This document shows positions 7,603-14,905 of a stretch of 35,920 bases of DNA, piece by piece. The stretch lies in the IMG/VR virus record IMGVR_UViG_649989946_000004, one strand, 5' to 3'. A program made the position numbers and the translations under genes. This DNA comes from a virus (taxonomy: Duplodnaviria > Heunggongvirae > Uroviricota > Caudoviricetes). Positions within the stretch are counted from its first letter, which is position 1. Each line of letters begins with the position of its first letter. Below the pieces are notes generated by a model, which worked only from the letters and a program-made list of their open reading frames with translations, searched no databases and was not told where the DNA came from.

Positions 7603-8532
7603 ATGGCAAACACTGCTGAGATATTCAATTTTCCAGTGCCGGATGCGGCACAAAAGGAGCCGCGCGTGGCAGATCTCGATGATGGTTATACGCGCATTGC
7701 AAATGAGTTGCTGGAAGCTGTGATGCTGGCCGGATTAACACAGCACCAGCTTCTGGTCTTCCTGGCTGTCATGCGCAAAACATATGGCTTTAATAAAAAA
7801 CTGGATTGGGTGAGCAACGAGCAACTTTCCGAGTTGACCGGGATATTGCCGCACAAGTGTTCTGCTGCAAAAAGTGTTCTGGTAAAGCGTGGGATTTTTA
7901 TTCAGAGCGGGCGGAATATCGGCATTAATAATGTGGTCAGTGAATGGTCAACATTACCCGAATCAGGTAAGAAAAATAAAGTTTACCTGAAAGAGGTAAA
8001 TTTACCTGAATCAGGTAAGAAAAGTTTACCCAAATCAGGTAAAGGCACTTACCCGAATCAGGTAAACACAAAAGACAAACTAACAAAAGACAATATAAAA
8101 CCTTTTTCGTCCGAGAATTCTGGCGAATCCTCTGACCAACCAGAAAACGATCTTCCTGTGGAGAAACCAGATGCTGCAATTCAGAGCGGCAGCAGGTGGG
8201 GGACAGCAGAAGACCTGACCGCCGCAGAGTGGATGTTTGACATGGTGAAGACCATCGCGCCATCAGCCAGAAAACCGAATTTTGCAGGGTGGGCTAACGA
8301 TATCCGCCTGATGCGTGAACGTGACGGCCGTAACCACCGCGACATGTGCGTGCTGTTCCGCTGGGCATGCCAGGACAACTTCTGGTCCGGTAACGTGCTA
8401 AGTCCGGCCAAACTCCGCGACAAGTGGACCCAACTCGAAATCAACCGTAACAAGCAACAGGCTGGCGTGATAGCCGGAAAATCAAAACTCGACCTGACAA
8501 ACACTGACTGGATTTACGGGGTGGATTTATGA
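7603..8532 (+). CDS. O: Replication initiator O
   Basis: N-terminal domain (MANTAEIFNFPV...VADLDDGYTRIANELLEAVMLAGLTQHQLLVFLAVMRKTYGFNK) matches lambda O; GGAGG SD before ATG at 7603; iteron array inside the gene; stop overlaps P start. Confidence 0.9.
   Translation: MANTAEIFNFPVPDAAQKEPRVADLDDGYTRIANELLEAVMLAGLTQHQLLVFLAVMRKTYGFNKKLDWVSNEQLSELTGILPHKCSAAKSVLVKRGIFIQSGRNIGINNVVSEWSTLPESGKKNKVYLKEVNLPESGKKSLPKSGKGTYPNQVNTKDKLTKDNIKPFSSENSGESSDQPENDLPVEKPDAAIQSGSRWGTAEDLTAAEWMFDMVKTIAPSARKPNFAGWANDIRLMRERDGRNHRDMCVLFRWACQDNFWSGNVLSPAKLRDKWTQLEINRNKQQAGVIAGKSKLDLTNTDWIYGVDL
7954..8067. repeat. Origin iterons (ori) inside O
   Basis: Five ~19-bp direct repeats (TTACC(C/T)GAATCAGGTAA-like) within the O linker region, the arrangement of lambda ori. 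Confidence 0.8.
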
Positions 8533-9230
8533 AAAACATCGCCGCACAGATGGTTAACTTTGACCGTGAGCAGATGCGCCGGATCGCCAACAACATGCCG
8601 GAACAGTACGACGAAAAGCCGCAGGTACAACAGGTAGCGCAGATCATCAATGGTGTGTTCAGCCAGTTACTGGCAACTTTCCCGGCGAGCCTGGCTAACC
8701 GGGACCAGAACGAACTGAACGAAATCCGCCGCCAGTGGGTTCTGGCTTTCCGGGAAAACGGGATCACCACGATGGAACAGGTTAACGCAGGAATGCGCGT
8801 AGCCCGTCGGCAGAATCGACCATTCCTGCCATCACCCGGGCAGTTTGTTGCCTGGTGCCGGGAAGAAGCATCCGTTACCGCCGGGCTGCCAAACGCCAGC
8901 GAGCTGGTTGATATGGTTTACGAGTATTGCCGGAAACGTGGCCTGTATCCAGATGCAGAGTCTTATCCGTGGAAATCAAACGCGCACTACTGGCTGGTTA
9001 CCAACCTGTATCAGAACATGCGGGCCAATGCGCTTACTGATGCGGAATTACGGCGCAAGGCTGCCGATGAACTGACTTGTATGACCGCGCGAATTAACCG
9101 TGGTGAGGCGATACCTGAACCAGTAAAACAACTTCCTGTCATGGGCGGTAGACCTCTAAATCGTGCACAGGCTCTGGCGAAGATCGCAGAAATCAAAGCG
9201 AAGTTCGGACTGAAAGGAGCAACTGTATGA
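8529..9230 (+). CDS. P: Replication protein P (DnaB helicase loader)
   Basis: 233-aa ORF essentially identical to lambda P by recall (MKNIAAQMVNFDREQMRRIANNMPEQYDEKPQVQQ...). Confidence 0.95.
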   Translation: MKNIAAQMVNFDREQMRRIANNMPEQYDEKPQVQQVAQIINGVFSQLLATFPASLANRDQNELNEIRRQWVLAFRENGITTMEQVNAGMRVARRQNRPFLPSPGQFVAWCREEASVTAGLPNASELVDMVYEYCRKRGLYPDAESYPWKSNAHYWLVTNLYQNMRANALTDAELRRKAADELTCMTARINRGEAIPEPVKQLPVMGGRPLNRAQALAKIAEIKAKFGLKGATV

Positions 9231-9529
9231 CGGGCAAAGAGGCAATTATTCATTACCTGGGGACGCATAAGAGCTTCTGTGCGCAGGACGTTGCTGCGGT
9301 AACAGGCGCAACAGTAACCAGTATAAATCAGGCTGCGGCTAAAATGGCACGGGCAGGAATCTTGGTCGTTGATGGTAAGGTCTGGCGAACGGTGTATTAC
9401 CGGTTCGCTACCAGGGAAGAACGGGAAGGAAAGGTGAGCACGAATCTGATTTTCAAGGAGTGTCGCCAGAGTGCCGCGATGAAACGAGTGTTGGCAGTGT
9501 ATGGAGATATGAACTTAAACTTGCTGTGA
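9227..9529 (+). CDS. ren: Ren
   Basis: 100-aa ORF MTGKEAIIHYLGTH...KVWRTVYYRFATREEREGK matches lambda Ren. Confidence 0.85.
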   Translation: MTGKEAIIHYLGTHKSFCAQDVAAVTGATVTSINQAAAKMARAGILVVDGKVWRTVYYRFATREEREGKVSTNLIFKECRQSAAMKRVLAVYGDMNLNLL

Positions 9530-9777
9530 CGGTTTTCATCGGTAACACACCATGTAATCTAGCAGTCAGCTTAGAAATAGGAGCGGCAGTTAAAGATTTT
9601 TCAGTTAGTAGAAAATTACTGTTATTGCAGGGATCTAATCACCGGAGAGTCGTTCCATTTGTCTTATGATTACCTGAAGTCCGTTAGTTCGTTGGTAATC
9701 ACCGTTTTTGTTAGAGAAGTAAGCATCGCTGACAAAATATTCTCAACGATGCCTGCTTTATTGCTACTACAAATTAA

Positions 9778-11278
9778 TTAAATTGCATCTGCAAACTCTG
9801 GGGTTTTTCGCTCAGGTATAATTGATGAGTTGCTGTTGTCACTTTTTTTATTTTCATGATTACGAATAGCCAATGACTCATTAAAGTCTTTTGCGACTGC
9901 TGTCTCAATAAATTCAATTTCTGAATCAGAGTGTTTTTTAACAGCTTCTTTGATCTCATCCAGAGTAACATAGAAAAACTCTTTTCTACGATTTACAAGA
10001 TTGACTCTCTTTTTATCGAAGACATCATGTAGTTTTTTTCTAATGATGGAGCGTCCTCCGAATAAATCATGGCATGTACATCAAAAATAAAAGGAACAGA
10101 TGCATCACCGAGCTCATTTACACGGTCTTGCGGATCAAGACGTCGTGTCATGCCTATTTTATAAACATTCTCCCCAAAAGAACCTATGTTCGAAATAATA
10201 TAAACATGACCTTGTTTGGTTTGTTGTGCCATGGATAATGCTCTTTGATGCTTTGATTCAGCCTGCGACAAACTCTGTTCTAGTTCGGCAATGCGATTTT
10301 CGAGGCGCTGCTTCATGTCACCAGTAACTTTTTCCATTTCCTTTCTTGCAGCTTCAATTGCTTTTTTATAACGGCGCTCTTCTGCCTCTGCGTCTTGCAT
10401 GGCCTTTTCTATTTCTCGTTGTGCACGCTCCTCCTCTCTCATTTGTGCCCTTATTTCTGCCTGTTCTTCTTTTTCTTTCTGTTTTTGCTCACGATATTCA
10501 TGGGTAAGCCACAATTCCTCAAGTTTTTTATTGAGGTATTTAGTGTTTATATATATATGATTTTGCTCGTTTAGTTTATTTATGGCCTCAAATGCCTTTG
10601 TGATGCGTTCTTCCATTTTAGTGATGTTTTTCCACGTGCAATTGCTAATTGCAGCATCACATTCATTATTAAATGCTCTAGTAGTTAGCCTGATATTTCT
10701 GTCTGTCATTTTTTTACCCTCTGCTCGAGAGCCTTCAACAGTCCATTGGGTTGTACAATATACTGCGCCAGAGTGGGTTTTATCCCGCAGCATTAATTTC
10801 TGTTCATCCCTGATGGATTTTATTTTGTTTTTAAATTGCTCTGAATCTTCAAAATTAAAATGAGGTTCGTAAAATCCTAGTTCGGCTAGCTCAACATCTT
10901 CTGAATAAATAGAAATTTGCCTTACTAGTTTATCATATATTTCTTTCTTCTCTTTATAAGTTCTTCTTAGCTCTTGGATTTGTTTATTGATACCATCCAT
11001 TTTTTCAATGGTGTTTGTTAGTTCATTATTGGCATTTTCTTTTACTTTTAGGGATTCTTCTTTTATTATGGAGCATTCTTGCTCTGTTTTCTCAATAAGC
11101 TTCTTACATTCTTCTTCTACATTAAAATAATCTGCAAAGCGAGATTTGTATTCTTCATTTTTTTGATTGCTATCACTTAATTCTAATTGTATTTTTTGAT
11201 GCGTTTGATTGCAGCTATATAAAGAACAAGAACAACCAATAAAAATATGATTGCAAGTAATAGAGGAGTTTGAGTCAT
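9778..11278 (-). CDS. Membrane-anchored coiled-coil protein with C-terminal T5orf172/GIY-YIG-like domain (DUF4041-like architecture); reading frame interrupted twice at homopolymer runs
   Basis: ATG at 11278 encodes a TM helix (MTQTPLLLAIIFLLVVLVLYIAAIKRIKK) that stops unless the T6 run 11192-11197 is read as 7; main 435-aa ORF (9993-11300) has a long coiled coil and GHVYIISNIGSFGENVYKIGMTRRLDPQDRVNELGDASVPFIFDVHAMI; the domain continues in the -1 frame (LHDVFDKKRVNLVNRRKEFFYVTLDEIKEAVKK...) to a stop at 9778 if the T7 run 10043-10049 is read as 8. Confidence 0.65.
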
Positions 11279-11587
11279 TCGTGCTATTCCTTACGGACAA
11301 TTTAAGACGTTTTGTATTAAATCCTGTTCAATGTGTATGCGGGTGATTGCTACCGCTTACAATCTTCATAATTATCAGTTAGATAGACTCGCTAGTAAAT
11401 AATTTCATTTTTTGCAATATTCTTATTGAATATTTCAATTTATGAAATGAACTCTTTATCCTTTCAAGGCGAAAGGTTTCTTCTTCGGAAATATTTGCTC
11501 TCGTGTGACGTATAAAGACCTTTGATTTTCAAAAATCAGTAGGGAATAATATAGTTACTGTCGGCCTGAACACCCGGTGGTGGGGTT

Positions 11588-11692
11588 GCGCTAAACGGGG
11601 ACGTTTATGCGCACACACAATCCAAACTCTCATCTCCATTCACAGATGCAGAAATGCACCTACGATTTTTTACATTCGGTGTTTTACTTCGA
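11588..11692. repeat. Direct repeat copy A (~105 bp, ~90% identical to copy B)
   Basis: GCGCTAAACGGGGACGTTTATGCGCACA...TTCACAGATGCAGAAATGCACCT... recurs at 13521-13625. Confidence 0.8.
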
Positions 11693-11737
11693 CAGCCAGA
11701 ATTGGGAGTCTCTATTCGTCTGGCGGCTAAAGGTGAT

Positions 11738-11827
11738 ATGGAAATCGTTATGTTTTGGCCTGAGGTAGTTGTAACTGTTGTAGCAGCTATGGCTGTGATC
11801 ATCATGGTGTCCATTTACTGGGGTTGA
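11738..11827 (+). CDS. Small hydrophobic peptide ORF (29 aa), speculative
   Basis: AAGGTGA SD then ATG; MEIVMFWPEVVVTVVAAMAVIIMVSIYWG is a single predicted TM segment; lies just after repeat copy A. Confidence 0.25.
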   Translation: MEIVMFWPEVVVTVVAAMAVIIMVSIYWG

Positions 11828-11913
11828 CGACATGATTTATCCGGCGCTATATTCTGTGCGTTGCCGCAAAATCGGCACACGGGATTGGCGTCCCGGGATA
11901 CTACTCAACGCAT

Positions 11914-11934
11914 ACCGCGTTAAGCGGTTTTTTT
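11914..11934 (+). terminator. Possible weak rho-independent terminator
   Basis: Short stem ACCGC-GTTAA-GCGGT followed by T7. Confidence 0.3.
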
Positions 11935-12090
11935 GTGCGCTAAGCACGGCTATGCCCAAATTATGGTGGGCTGTGTGAGGGCTTCTTCGGAAGCGCCGGG
12001 TTTGAGTAGCCGGTTACGCCAACCTTACACAGTTCACCACCAGTCGATTGGCGTCGTTGGTGGTGATGGTTAACCTGATGAGGTGATACT

Positions 12091-12699
12091 ATGACTACTC
12101 AATTAGCATTCCACAAAACGACGTTTACCCCGATTTGCCACAATAACAGAATTTGGCTTACTGCCACTGAAGTTGGTTTAGCACTGGAATATGCGGACGA
12201 TAAAGCAGTTCAGCGCATTTACTCTCGGCACTCAGATGAATTCACAGATATGATGACAAGGGTGGTCAAAGTGACCACCCCTCGTGGAATGCAGGAGTCT
12301 CGAGTATTTAGCCTTCGCGGAGCCCATTTGATCGCCATGTTTGCTCGTACTCCTGTGGCCAAAGAATTCCGCCGCTGGGTTCTGGATATTCTCGATCGAG
12401 AAGTTCAACAATCCCCAATCACAAAACAATTCACTGATAACGAACTTTGCACACTCGCCTGGTTATGGCGAGCAAGTGATACGATGTTAACCGCCTGCCA
12501 GAACGTTACGCCCCTTCTTCAGGTCGCAGAGCATCGCGAAGCAGGTAGATTCACTTCAATCGAACAAGAATATCCTCGGATACTCAACAGGGCGCGAGAA
12601 ATCCTTGCCAGAGAAACGGCGCATGTAAAATTCCAACCGTGGCAGGATGATAAGTGGAGTCGTGTGTTACCATATTTCCGTCAGAATCTGTTGCAATAA
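12091..12699 (+). CDS. BRO-N / antirepressor-like protein
   Basis: 202-aa ORF with GAGGTGA SD; N-terminal pattern (LAFHKTTF...IWLTATEVGLALEY ... RVFSLRGAHLIAMFARTPVAKEFRRWVLDIL) fits the Bro-N / P22-antirepressor N-terminal fold. Confidence 0.6.
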   Translation: MTTQLAFHKTTFTPICHNNRIWLTATEVGLALEYADDKAVQRIYSRHSDEFTDMMTRVVKVTTPRGMQESRVFSLRGAHLIAMFARTPVAKEFRRWVLDILDREVQQSPITKQFTDNELCTLAWLWRASDTMLTACQNVTPLLQVAEHREAGRFTSIEQEYPRILNRAREILARETAHVKFQPWQDDKWSRVLPYFRQNLLQ

Positions 12700-12933
12700 A
12701 GTCACTAGTTAGAAATACTGCCAGCATTCTGCGATGACGGAAGTGCTGGCATTTTTTTGGTAATGTGCGAGTCCATTTCATAAAATACGGGTACTGGAAC
12801 TGGACGATATAATCTAAAAGATACCATTATCAGTAGCATTAAAATCGCTATGTGCCGATACGGATATAAATTATATTGATTGTTCACATACCTTATTGGA
12901 TATTACTGAGGGGTGTTTATATAAGGTGTAACG

Positions 12934-13443
12934 ATGATGTGGAACTTTGACAGTGCCGACTTAAGTGCAATAGCAGCAGGCATTTCTGCGTTTGGCACAT
13001 TAGCCGCAGCGGGGTCGGCGCTTGCAAGTTGGTGCACGTCAAAAAAAGCGCTGCAGCTACAAAATAGAGTTTACCTTTATGAGTCTTTAAAGGCTTGCGC
13101 TGAGAGAGCCAATTCATCAGCTAAAGATAAGCGCGGATCTGAATGGAGCGTTAATGATGCAGCGGATATCATCAGGTGCCTAGTACGGGCGATGGAGCTC
13201 ATCAAGCAGGATAGCCAGCAGAAAGAAGGTAATCAGGCATTAATGTTGAAACAGTACTTTGTTAATCTGCTAATAATGGAACTGTACGAGGAAGTTCATA
13301 ACGGTGATGCGGCTGATTCTGTTTTTAAAAGTACGGAACCTACACAAGTACTTGATAACTTATGGAGCAAATGGCAGGAGGCTATAGCTTTTTTTGATAT
13401 TTGGAATTACCCAGTTGCGACTGAGGAAGACTTGGCAGACTAA
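12934..13443 (+). CDS. Hypothetical membrane protein (N-terminal TM helix, cytoplasmic alpha-helical domain)
   Basis: 169-aa ORF with AGGTG SD, preceded by a ~230-bp AT-rich promoter-like region; hydrophobic segment LSAIAAGISAFGTLAAAGSALASW; no family recognised. Confidence 0.6.
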   Translation: MMWNFDSADLSAIAAGISAFGTLAAAGSALASWCTSKKALQLQNRVYLYESLKACAERANSSAKDKRGSEWSVNDAADIIRCLVRAMELIKQDSQQKEGNQALMLKQYFVNLLIMELYEEVHNGDAADSVFKSTEPTQVLDNLWSKWQEAIAFFDIWNYPVATEEDLAD

Positions 13444-13520
13444 TTTTCAGCACATTTGATTTCCAATAATCAACCAGCCATAATCATGCCATTGGAGCTT
13501 GAACAACTCCGGTGACTTCT

Positions 13521-13625
13521 GCGCTAAACGGGGACGTTTATGCGCACATACAATCCAAACTCTCTTCTCCCTTCACAGATGCAGAGATGCACCTGCGATT
13601 TTTTGCATCCAGCGTTTGACCTCTG
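13521..13625. repeat. Direct repeat copy B, immediately upstream of ninB
   Basis: See copy A; ends ~12 bp before the ninB GTG start. Confidence 0.8.
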
Positions 13626-13637
13626 CGGAGGTGAAGC

Positions 13638-14093
13638 GTGAACCTCCCACAAGACGGCATCAAATTGCATCGTGGTAACTTCACCGCTATCGGCCAGCAG
13701 ATCCAGCCTTATCTGGAGGAAGGCAAATGCTTTCGCATGGTGCTTAAACCGTGGCGTGAGAAACGCAGTCTTTCCCAGAATGCACTCAGCCACATGTGGT
13801 ACAGCGAAATCAGTGAATACCTCATCAGCAGGGGTAAAACGTTCGCCACTCCAGCTTGGGTAAAAGATGCTCTCAAACACACATATCTCGGTTATGAAAC
13901 CAAAGACCTGGTTGATGTCGTAACCGGTGAGATCACCACTATCCAGTCGTTACGCCATACCTCCGATCTTGATACCGGAGAGATGTATATCTTCCTGTGT
14001 AAGGTTGAAGCCTGGGCGGTGAATATTGGCTGCCACCTGACTATTCCGCAGAGCTGCGAGTTCCAGCTGCTCCGCGACAAGCAGGAGGCGTAA
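13638..14093 (+). CDS. ninB: NinB-family recombination protein
   Basis: 151-aa ORF, GTG start with GGAGG SD; motif [21 protein letters not shown] matches the NinB RSLDQN region. Confidence 0.75.
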
Positions 14094-14260
14094 TGGCTAC
14101 ACCGCTTATTCGTGTCATGAACGGACACATCTACAGAGTATCAAATCGTCGTAAGCGTAAGCCTGAGCTGAAGCCATCCGAAATACCAACTCTGCTCGGA
14201 TATACCGCTAGCCTGGTTGATAAAAAATGGTTGCGACTGGCAGCAAGGAGGAATCATGGC
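14093..14260 (+). CDS. ninE: NinE
   Basis: 55-aa [59 protein letters not shown] matches DLP12 NinE as recalled; TAATG overlap with ninB; below the ORF-track size cut-off. Confidence 0.75.
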
Positions 14261-14546
14261 TGATTTGAGAAAAGCAGCGCGTGGTCGGGAATGCCAGGTA
14301 AGAATCCCTGGCGTATGTAATGGCAATTCTGAAACGTCTGTACTGGCACATATCCGGCTGGCTGGATTGTGCGGTACCGGTATCAAACCGCCAGACCTGA
14401 TTGCCACCATTGCATGTTCTGCCTGCCACGACGAAATCGACCGCCGCACACATTTTGTCGATGCTGCATATGCAAAAGAATGCGCGCTGGAAGGTATGGC
14501 GAGAACACAGGTTATCTGGCTGAAAGAGGGGGTTATTAAGGCGTGA
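14256..14546 (+). CDS. ybcO: YbcO-like DUF1364 protein (putative nuclease)
   Basis: ATG with AGGAGG SD; [24 protein letters not shown]...[11 protein letters not shown] matches DLP12 YbcO as recalled. Confidence 0.8.
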
Positions 14547-14905
14547 ATACCTACAGTATCACATTACCCTGGCCTCCGAGCAATAATCGCTATTACCGCC
14601 ATAATCGCGGGCGCACGCACGTCAGTGCAGAGGGGCAGGCATACCGCGATAACGTCGCCCGAATCATTAAAAACGCAATGCTGGATATCGGCCTGGCTAT
14701 GCCTGTGAAAATCCGCATTGAGTGCCACATGCCGGATCGCCGTCGCCGTGACCTGGATAATCTGCAAAAAGCCGCTTTTGACGCACTCACTAAAGCAGGT
14801 TTCTGGCTGGATGATGCTCAGGTCGTTGATTACCGCGTTGTGAAGATGCCTGTTACCAAAGGTGGGAGGCTGGAACTGATCATCACCGAACTGGGGGATG
14901 AATGA
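14543..14905 (+). CDS. rusA: RusA Holliday-junction resolvase
   Basis: 120-aa [40 protein letters not shown]... matches DLP12 RusA. Confidence 0.9.

Follow-up and report, generated by a model that had tools for sequence, protein, structure and literature searches.

Direct repeats around an antirepressor cassette of a lambdoid prophage are probable paralogous copies of the orf33/ylcH promoter-leader and a site of module exchange

Introduction

Why should a lambdoid prophage carry the same sequence of about one hundred base pairs twice, in direct orientation, on either side of an antirepressor segment? The locus in question lies in IMG/VR virus record IMGVR_UViG_649989946_000004, a stretch of 35,920 nucleotides (nt) that was analyzed as a whole and is referred to here as the window. 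The window is a lambdoid prophage and was found to be 99.7% identical to Escherichia phage PhiR26_1 over positions 9200-14100. An initial annotation, made from the letters of the sequence, had described two direct repeats of ~105 bp, ~90% identical to each other, and had read them either as a conserved junction at which the segment between them was acquired by recombination or as a duplicated remnant gene. The analysis reported here indicates that the repeats are very probably two paralogous copies of a conserved promoter-leader, that of the small gene orf33/ylcH of 82/phi80-type lambdoid prophages, and that modules are exchanged at this repeat.

Results

The window carries two copies of one conserved unit

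A repeat search of positions 11000-14200 returned a single long pair on the + strand, 11587-11690 (copy A) and 13520-13623 (copy B), with a length of 104 nt, an identity of 89% and a spacing of 1933. By gapless scan of the same region, 93 of the 104 positions matched, compared to a mean of 48.8 and a maximum of 52 of 104 in 30 mononucleotide shuffles of that region. The sequence was not of low complexity, and the repeat pair as first described was borne out, with coordinates that were off by only 1-2 nt. Pairwise alignment revealed a 29-nt stretch that is identical in both copies (11587-11615 and 13520-13548), and homology of ~80% was found to extend ~65 nt 5' of the repeats, to ~11521 and ~13455, taking in a promoter-like site. 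Short open reading frames (ORFs) that begin MRT(H/Y)NPNS... are present in both copies, as had been noted, and copy B does abut the next gene: the GTG of a 151-amino-acid (aa) ORF at 13638 overlaps the TGA of the small ORF (13639-13641).

By BLAST, copy B matched the beginning of GenBank X92588 (phage 82) with 97.9% identity across 141 nt. This record annotates a putative -35/-10, a palindrome, a 'possible regulator-binding site' at 82-110, orf33 and orf151. The counterpart in E. coli K-12 is ylcH (b4588), a gene of 102 nt in the cryptic prophage DLP12 that overlaps ybcN by 4 nt, and the phi80 record annotates the second hairpin of the unit, described below, as inverted repeat IR4. The 151-aa product encoded next to copy B was assigned to the YbcN branch of the NinB/Orf family (NF007281, 278.8 bits; phrog_72); its Pfam NinB score was 22.8 versus a cut-off of 23.8.

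The unit was detected in 2741 of 5426 complete E. coli genomes (about half). BLAST also placed it ahead of ninB/ybcN in lambdoid phages of Klebsiella and Enterobacter in addition to those of Escherichia, consistent with the conserved boundary sequence that had been proposed. A search via the YbcN protein revealed it in prophages of Phytobacter, Pseudescherichia, Buttiauxella, Serratia, Scandinavium and Raoultella, and returned many other YbcN genes that have no leader unit. The same leader precedes YbcN-type and true NinB-type genes, which are 15-20% identical to each other, and homology stops at the start codon. An Rfam search of 11400-13750 with E values up to 10 left the repeat unmatched and detected only isrK, C4 and c4-a1b1, all within the cargo.

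The unit has the features of a structured RNA leader

Leaders were aligned as 88 copies (82 distinct), and a covariance model, R1, was built from 29 phage-82-type leaders and a structure that we specified. When the whole window was searched with R1 and filters off, two matches alone were found, at copy B (197 bits) and copy A (119 bits). The ylcH region of DLP12 scored 196 bits, and lambda, with a single hairpin (tR2) at the equivalent position, gave no match. Four helices were supported in the 82 distinct leaders: 97.3% of cells were standard pairs, both-sided changes were observed at 31 of 39 pairs, none of 500 shuffles reached any of the observed pairing measures, and pairing fell to 29-43% when partners were slid by 1-3 columns. 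The same helices were readable directly in the unaligned sequences. Moreover, the hairpins were kept with different stem sequences in Klebsiella, Pseudescherichia, Serratia, Buttiauxella and Phytobacter, for which homologues were found via the YbcN protein or BLAST and independently of any DNA pattern. Since frequent G-U pairs are found on the + strand only, the structure is that of an RNA of this strand.

The stems vary around constant loops. For hairpin 1, with the conserved loop CCUGAACAA (YYUGARCAM), the stem variants include CACCGGAG/CUCCGGUG, GCCAGCGG/CCCUGGC, GCUGAUGG/CCAUUGGU and CGCAGUCGG/CCGGUUGCG. Hairpin 2, to which the 29-nt identical stretch corresponds, has a constant GGGA loop on the stems GCGCUAAACG/CGUUUAUGCGC, CGCAUUUAAG/CUUAAAUGCG, GCGCUUUGAG/CUCAAAGUGC and GCGCCAAGUG/CACAUGGCGC. 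Hairpin 3 reads UCACAGAUGCA-GAAA-UGCACCUGCGA in E. coli and UCACCGAUGGC-GAAA-GCCACCGGCGA in Klebsiella. This pairing was preferred for the third helix because compensatory changes preserve it, and it alone, in Klebsiella, Pseudescherichia, Serratia and Buttiauxella; the pairing GAUGCAG/UUUGCAUC given by RNAalifold is not conserved in Klebsiella or Serratia and was rejected. As a separate observation, a Pseudescherichia metagenome-assembled genome (L151, 1313-1506) was found to have three hairpin-1-like stem-loops in tandem, all of which show the conserved loop motif (CCUGAACAAC, UCUGAACAAC and CCCGAACAGC), which suggests that the loop is a recognition site for some factor.

In copy B, the GGGA loop of hairpin 2 is part of a Shine-Dalgarno-like GGGGA, and the 3' arm of this hairpin holds the ATG at 13540. 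Hairpin 3 is followed by T6, and a consensus scan detected a terminator-like site at 13580-13597 plus ATTTTTT. The linker between hairpins 2 and 3 is 38% C and 6% G, and hairpin 4 covers the Shine-Dalgarno sequence and GTG of ybcN.

The small ORF is maintained within the leader

The small ORF of this family is 31-34 codons in length and, in the 81 distinct leaders scored, spans hairpin 3 and the U-run. The first start codon of the ylcH frame was located in the 3' arm of hairpin 2 in 71 of the 81, and the stop was located at the downstream start codon in 72, with A-type copies and one premature stop as the exceptions; neither placement was ever seen in the other two frames. The distance from start codon to hairpin 3 was 30 or 33 nt in ten hand-checked sequence types, despite linkers that are unrelated, which argues that the frame is selected. 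The peptide was found to be poorly conserved, as compensatory stem changes rewrite its sequence. A second frame (...ALNGDVYAH(T/I)...) looked coding between copies A and B, with four synonymous third-position differences; it was rejected, as it never has a start in the leader and ends before the leader 3' end in 44 of the 81 sequences, including the phi80-type.

These data bear on whether the repeat is instead a duplicated protein-coding gene, in which the YlcH microprotein is selected and copy A is a decaying remnant. The ORF is open in 80 of the 81 scorable sequences, a DFLHSA...GG motif recurs, and a coding sequence is annotated in K-12, phage 82, HK225 and Klebsiella phages, all as expected of a gene. 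However, the peptide varies freely with the compensatory stem changes (SQMQKCTC versus SPMAKATG in Klebsiella), its conserved residues fall at the U-run, at hairpin 4 and at the Shine-Dalgarno sequence of the next gene (GGAGG reads Gly-Gly), only 1-2 of the 11 differences between copies A and B are synonymous, and no Pfam, NCBIfam or PHROG family was matched. A selected microprotein is, therefore, improbable as the identity of the repeat, and the remnant-gene alternative of the initial annotation was wrong: the ORF is orf33/ylcH, kept as an open frame inside a structured regulatory leader.

The unit could also be viewed as the gene for a trans-acting small RNA (sRNA) of ~115 nt, composed of a promoter, hairpins 1 and 2, a single-stranded C/A-rich seed, and hairpin 3 with its U-run as terminator. 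The duplication would then represent two sRNA genes, and a dual role as sRNA and leader is conceivable. Prophages are rich in sRNAs (PMC4104026), and the conserved promoter, terminator-like site, strongly covarying hairpins and unstructured C-rich linker would all suit an sRNA. By contrast, an sRNA would not account for an open frame that is kept at a 30/33-nt spacing from start to hairpin 3 and that stops over the next start (72 of 81), nor for a covarying hairpin 4, situated past the presumed terminator and over the downstream ribosome-binding site; these features therefore belong to a messenger RNA leader. The linker, which would provide the seed, is in addition the least conserved part, no Rfam family was matched, and the known prophage anti-sRNAs of enterohemorrhagic E. 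coli map elsewhere, at the PR' moron site (PMC4104026). Among these, AgvB and AsxR were considered as the identity of the repeat and were rejected on account of this location, and a preprint on the Pas sRNA leaves the repeat locus unmentioned. Overall, we consider an sRNA gene unlikely, if somewhat less so than a microprotein gene, and retain the leader as the preferred identity.

A promoter-like site precedes hairpin 1

A -35/-10 pair (typically TTGATT, a 17-nt spacer and CATAAT) was detected at a fixed distance 5' of hairpin 1 in 57 of 72 distinct upstream regions, compared to 2.75% of random positions. Most of the remaining leaders keep TATAAT, GATAAT or TACACT at the -10 spot. Hairpin 1 would be at the 5' end of a transcript from this sigma-70-like promoter.

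Separately, a palindrome, TTGAT(T/A)-N6-(A/T)ATCAA, was observed over the -35 of both leaders (13455-13475 and 11521-11541). It is changed symmetrically in phi80 (TTGATA...TATCAA), and another lineage (L006, L016 and others) has a different 19-nt palindrome (ATCATTTTTCAAAAGTGAT) at the leader -35 position. These palindromes may be operators for regulators. By extension, hairpin 1 or the -35 palindrome could be a DNA operator for a repressor, such that both transcription units share a regulator; the 'possible regulator-binding site' of X92588 (82-110) and the symmetric change in phi80 fit this possibility. However, the hairpin 1 stem varies with compensatory and G-U changes while its loop is constant, the opposite of what an operator would show, and the -35 palindrome is outside the 104-nt repeat and differs between lineages. 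An operator is thus a rather improbable explanation of the repeat, and it is compatible with the promoter-leader as an extra layer of control.

Neighboring modules are exchanged within the repeat

For IMG/VR contig L047, window positions 9201-11690 and 13520-14600 both aligned at ~98%, and, since the two alignments overlap by exactly the 104-nt repeat, this contig has the order ren, PD-lambda-1 defense gene, one leader and ybcN. The same layout was found in IMG/VR contigs L036 and L072 and in contig L158. In all four, the single leader is a hybrid in which the left half derives from copy A and the right half from copy B; L047, compared base by base, agrees with copy A as far as the identical core and with copy B beyond it. 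The PD-lambda-1 gene is the left neighbor that travels with the left half of copy A. The reciprocal form was found in L050, which combines a B-like left half with an A right half and has the same cassette at 99.6%. Because all four left-right combinations exist (copy A, L047, copy B and L050), recombination within 11587-11615 is required. Among complete E. coli genomes, 144 have the cassette-free order of PD-lambda-1, one leader and ybcN, and 84 have the two-copy form of the window.

These results support the proposed acquisition of the segment through recombination at a conserved junction, as natural alleles with and without the cassette fit the repeat as an exchange site. With the unit at a module border and a 29-nt identical core within it, homologous recombination in the unit can join different neighbors and insert or remove the 1.9-kb cassette exactly. 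Recombination of such diverged phage sequences by Red-beta-type recombinases (relaxed homologous recombination) has been shown experimentally (De Paepe et al. 2014, PMC3945230). A further mosaic joint was observed inside the antirepressor gene: L033 and L110 differ from the window upstream of 12389 and match it from there on, through the C-terminal half of ant, ORF169, leader B and ybcN.

Direct repeats around an accessory segment with exact presence/absence alleles might alternatively mark the ends of a cassette moved by an enzyme, as a target-site duplication or as att-like sites. Such a mobile cassette is, in our judgment, highly improbable. No transposase or recombinase is encoded between the repeats, and copies of 104 nt at 89% identity are unlike a target-site duplication. 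Furthermore, the unit is single in cassette-free phages and far older than the cassette (it reaches Serratia and Klebsiella), its left and right halves reassort independently with their neighbors, and mosaic joints occur elsewhere in the cassette, for example that inside ant. Homologous exchange within the leader is the explanation that we retain.

Copy A is a derived paralogue that heads an antirepressor cassette

Copy B is the canonical ybcN leader and copy A a diverged paralogue of it. In copy A, hairpin 2 is unchanged, hairpins 1 and 3 are weaker, and hairpin 4 is replaced by other sequence (Table 1). A C-rich linker separates hairpins 2 and 3, and hairpin 3 is followed by a T-run and was not picked up by the terminator scan. 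The ORF of copy A is extended to 53 codons and overlaps a hydrophobic ORF; since its stop does not overlap a ybcN/ninB start as in copy B, copy A is considered the derived paralogue. Compared to an O157-type copy, three of the four non-stop codon differences in the ORF extension were synonymous in the ylcH frame and none in the other frame. All of the A-type copies found (window, L004, L010, L039, L040, L050, L070 and L084) have isrK and C4 within ~300 nt downstream, and the cargo order of isrK, C4-type RNA and antirepressor was the same in seven other loci. Pairing of IsrK or C4 with either leader was examined in the window and O157:H7, and duplex energies were no better than those of shuffles (z of -1.3 to +1.1).

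The window has the layout of the Gifsy-1 module of isrK, orf45 and anrP, in which orf45 is reported to be coupled to anrP (PMC4825925). The cargo of the window shares isrK and C4, an orf45-like ORF and an antirepressor, in order, with Gifsy-1 IsrK-orf45-AnrP and P1 immI c4-icd-ant. Unlike the Gifsy-1 module, the cargo of the window is located between ren/PD-lambda-1 and ybcN, after a ylcH-type leader and a small hydrophobic ORF, both of which are unmentioned in the consulted passages on Gifsy-1.

Table 1. Features of the window from P to ybcN. Folding energies are given for the leader hairpins.
Feature	Coordinates	Strand	Evidence or remark
P	8529-9230		
ren	9227-9529		
PD-lambda-1 (DUF4041/T5orf172) defense gene	9778-11278	-	PADLOC PD-Lambda-1, E=8e-166; Pfam DUF4041, MUG113; annotated in PhiR26_1; coordinates from blastn
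Copy A promoter-like site	11522-11550	+	TTGATT, 17-nt spacer, AATAAT; consensus scan; same position as putative -35/-10 of phage 82
Leader copy A	11553-11702	+	Covariance model R1, 119 bits
Hairpin 1, copy A	11557-11581	+	-4.4 kcal/mol
Direct repeat copy A	11587-11690	+	
Hairpin 2, copy A	11587-11613	+	-13.7 kcal/mol
ylcH-like small ORF of copy A	11607-11768	+	53 codons; overlaps start of next small ORF
Hairpin 3, copy A	11640-11665	+	-4.4 kcal/mol
Hydrophobic 29-codon ORF (MEIVMFWPEVVVTVVAAMAVIIMVSIYWG)	11738-11827	+	phrog_4612, E=7.5e-16; hydropathy
isrK sRNA gene	11862-11934	+	Rfam RF01394, 58.7 bits; preceded by promoter-like site 11824-11853
orf45-like ORF	11933-12073	+	Contains C4/STnc1160-type RNA 11959-12044 (Rfam RF01695, 74.8 bits)
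Antirepressor, AnrP/Ant-like	12091-12699	+	Bro-N and P22_AR_C domains (Pfam, PHROGs)
Terminator-like hairpin just 3' of antirepressor gene	12719-12758	+	GCCAGCA...UGCUGGC, then U7; folding
169-aa ORF, function unassigned	12934-13443	+	Hydrophobic N-terminus; phrog_1779, E=2e-102
Copy B promoter-like site	13456-13484	+	TTGATT, 17-nt spacer, CATAAT; consensus scan; corresponds to putative -35/-10 of X92588
Leader copy B, canonical	13486-13643	+	Covariance model R1, 197 bits
Hairpin 1, copy B	13490-13514	+	-9.0 kcal/mol
Direct repeat copy B	13520-13623	+	
Hairpin 2, copy B	13520-13546	+	-13.7 kcal/mol
orf33/ylcH small ORF	13540-13641	+	33 codons; phage 82 orf33; K-12 ylcH b4588; stop overlaps ybcN start (GTGA, 13638-13641)
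Hairpin 3, copy B	13573-13598	+	-9.3 kcal/mol
Hairpin 4, copy B	13612-13639	+	-16.8 kcal/mol
ybcN (orf151)	13638-14093	+	First nin-operon gene; other nin genes downstream

Additional observations were made on the genes around the two leaders. The window PD-lambda-1 gene differs from the intact 1503-nt gene of PhiR26_1 and complete E. coli genomes by two single-base deletions and one substitution (near 11197 and 10032); its frame is interrupted at two points, which leaves a longest ORF of 435 aa compared to 500. This disruption reflects either a pseudogene or sequencing error. For the hydrophobic 29-codon ORF, gene status is uncertain because an early TAG interrupts the O157:H7 copy (L010 ~3650). 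PHROG 4612 models a 57-aa ORF from the ATG at 11654 (11654-11827), and codon differences favor the ylcH frame over its first half; because of these differences and the O157:H7 TAG, the call of a 57-aa gene could be in error and the hydrophobic peptide could be dispensable. The promoter-like site before isrK is strong (TTGACG, 18-nt spacer, TATATT), and a sub-threshold c4-a1b1 match was detected at 11847-11899. The terminator-like hairpin of the antirepressor gene is strong and escaped the consensus scan owing to its long loop. The content of the slot from the antirepressor gene to leader copy B varies: in O157:H7, which shares the two-copy layout, a HEPN gene and partner take the place of the 169-aa ORF (L010 4923-5719), and the 169-aa ORF had no PADLOC match. 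This slot may be a defense or moron slot. Between ybcN and ybcO, a 56-codon ORF (14093-14263) was found at the ninE position of related prophages; it is unannotated in the near-identical PhiR26_1 record.

Discussion

What the leader does ahead of ybcN may be considered in light of its position. We propose, at a confidence just short of even, that the leader gates transcription and translation of the nin operon in cis, at the position of lambda tR2. The gate would be a double lock. Initiation of ylcH would be hindered by hairpin 2, which buries the AUG, and a ribosome finishing ylcH would melt hairpin 4, such that ybcN would be translated only via coupling. Most transcripts from the local promoter would either stop ~115 nt after the start, at hairpin 3 and the U-run, or stay untranslated, and Rho acting on the untranslated C-rich linker could add to termination. 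Antiterminated early transcription would read through the leader. With such a barrier at the place that tR2 occupies in lambda, Q, which lies at the operon's end, would depend on antiterminated early transcription. The DLP12 ybcN-rusA operon has been reported to need a promoter supplied by an insertion sequence for adequate expression (PMC4118853), which agrees with such a gate.

Several points weigh against this proposal or limit the evidence for its parts. Three of its elements are inferred, namely where transcription starts, that it ends at hairpin 3 and that ylcH is translated. Hairpin 3 is weak as a terminator (-9.3 kcal/mol), with two conserved A-C mismatches (in 78 and 80 of the 82 sequences), and the U-run is degenerate in some variants (GAUGUCUUG and GAUAUAUUG). 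Neither an alternative antiterminator structure nor a trigger that opens hairpin 2 was found. The ylcH peptide itself is probably not selected, as nearly all differences between copies A and B alter it. On the side of method, the alignment used for the pair counts was fitted to the model, and many sequences were gathered with a search pattern inside hairpin 3, so that the invariance of this hairpin in E. coli is partly ascertainment. With regard to the exchange, the data fit either an insertion in the lineage of the window or a deletion that gave rise to the single-copy form.

Compared to lambda tR2, the leader shares map position (the ren-ninB junction, before a NinB/Orf-family gene) and a hairpin with T-run, and by analogy it may provide a comparable barrier against nin transcription that is not antiterminated. 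It differs in that tR2 is a single strong GC-rich hairpin with no promoter, small ORF or translational coupling, and with no sequence or model similarity to the leader. Attenuators and translationally coupled leaders with a leader ORF (pyrBI/trp type and Gifsy-1 isrK-orf45-anrP) likewise have a short ORF over a terminator-like hairpin, a downstream ribosome-binding site hidden in a hairpin that can be opened only by a ribosome from upstream, and a stop-start overlap. Unlike these, the ylcH leader has the start of its ORF itself locked in a hairpin, and no antiterminator fold was found. No run of sensing codons was detected in the YlcH peptide. Since it has neither conserved antiterminator pairing nor a run of regulatory codons, the unit was not filed as a classical attenuator, although it may work like one.

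As a recombination junction, the repeat is real and ordinary in kind; the point added here is that a conserved regulatory RNA leader, with the K-12 orphan gene ylcH in it, forms this junction. In the modular-exchange model of lambdoid phages (PMC3945230), short conserved boundary or linker homologies likewise allow different neighbors to be joined by homologous recombination of diverged copies. Unlike the classical linkers, the sequence described here occurs twice in direct orientation in one genome, and for this reason can also delete the intervening DNA, and it is a regulatory leader and not a neutral spacer. The orf33/ylcH regions of phage 82 and DLP12 are like copy B in small ORF, overlap with orf151/ybcN, putative -35/-10 and palindrome. 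In these prophages, however, the unit is single and recorded only as an ORF with putative signals, whereas the window has a second, 89%-identical copy that heads different genes.

Annotations of the ORF, of the putative promoter and of one or two palindromes already exist in 1996 and 2012 records, and exchange at conserved junctions is the classical model of lambdoid mosaicism. The four-hairpin structure is unannotated in all of the records and papers that could be reached. The leader was likewise undescribed in the literature searched (ylcH, phi80 IR4, and tR2/boundary sequences), as were the apparent coupling logic and the duplication ahead of an antirepressor cassette; access to this literature was limited, and novelty is not claimed.

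Taken as a whole, the locus provides a sequence-resolved case of lambdoid cassette gain or loss, by recombination in the 29-nt core that the two copies of a conserved leader share, and natural E. coli commonly carry either allele. The uncharacterized ylcH of K-12 becomes a testable hypothesis. Its ORF seems to form the translated portion of an RNA leader with strong covariation. This leader may set how much product of the nin recombination genes, and in the end of Q, the activator of the late genes, is made without antitermination; if true, this bears on prophage silencing and induction and on the silent rusA of DLP12. Still more tentatively than for the gate itself, we suggest that the ylcH leader may represent an unrecognized, widespread class of cis-regulatory RNA in Enterobacterales prophages, which serves as a promoter-proximal, four-hairpin gate, coupled to a leader ORF, at the entry of the nin-Q operon. 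A copy of it would have been placed in front of an antirepressor cassette as a portable promoter-leader. If so, a single element would regulate prophage modules and at the same time, being present as a direct repeat, allow these modules to be swapped in and out.

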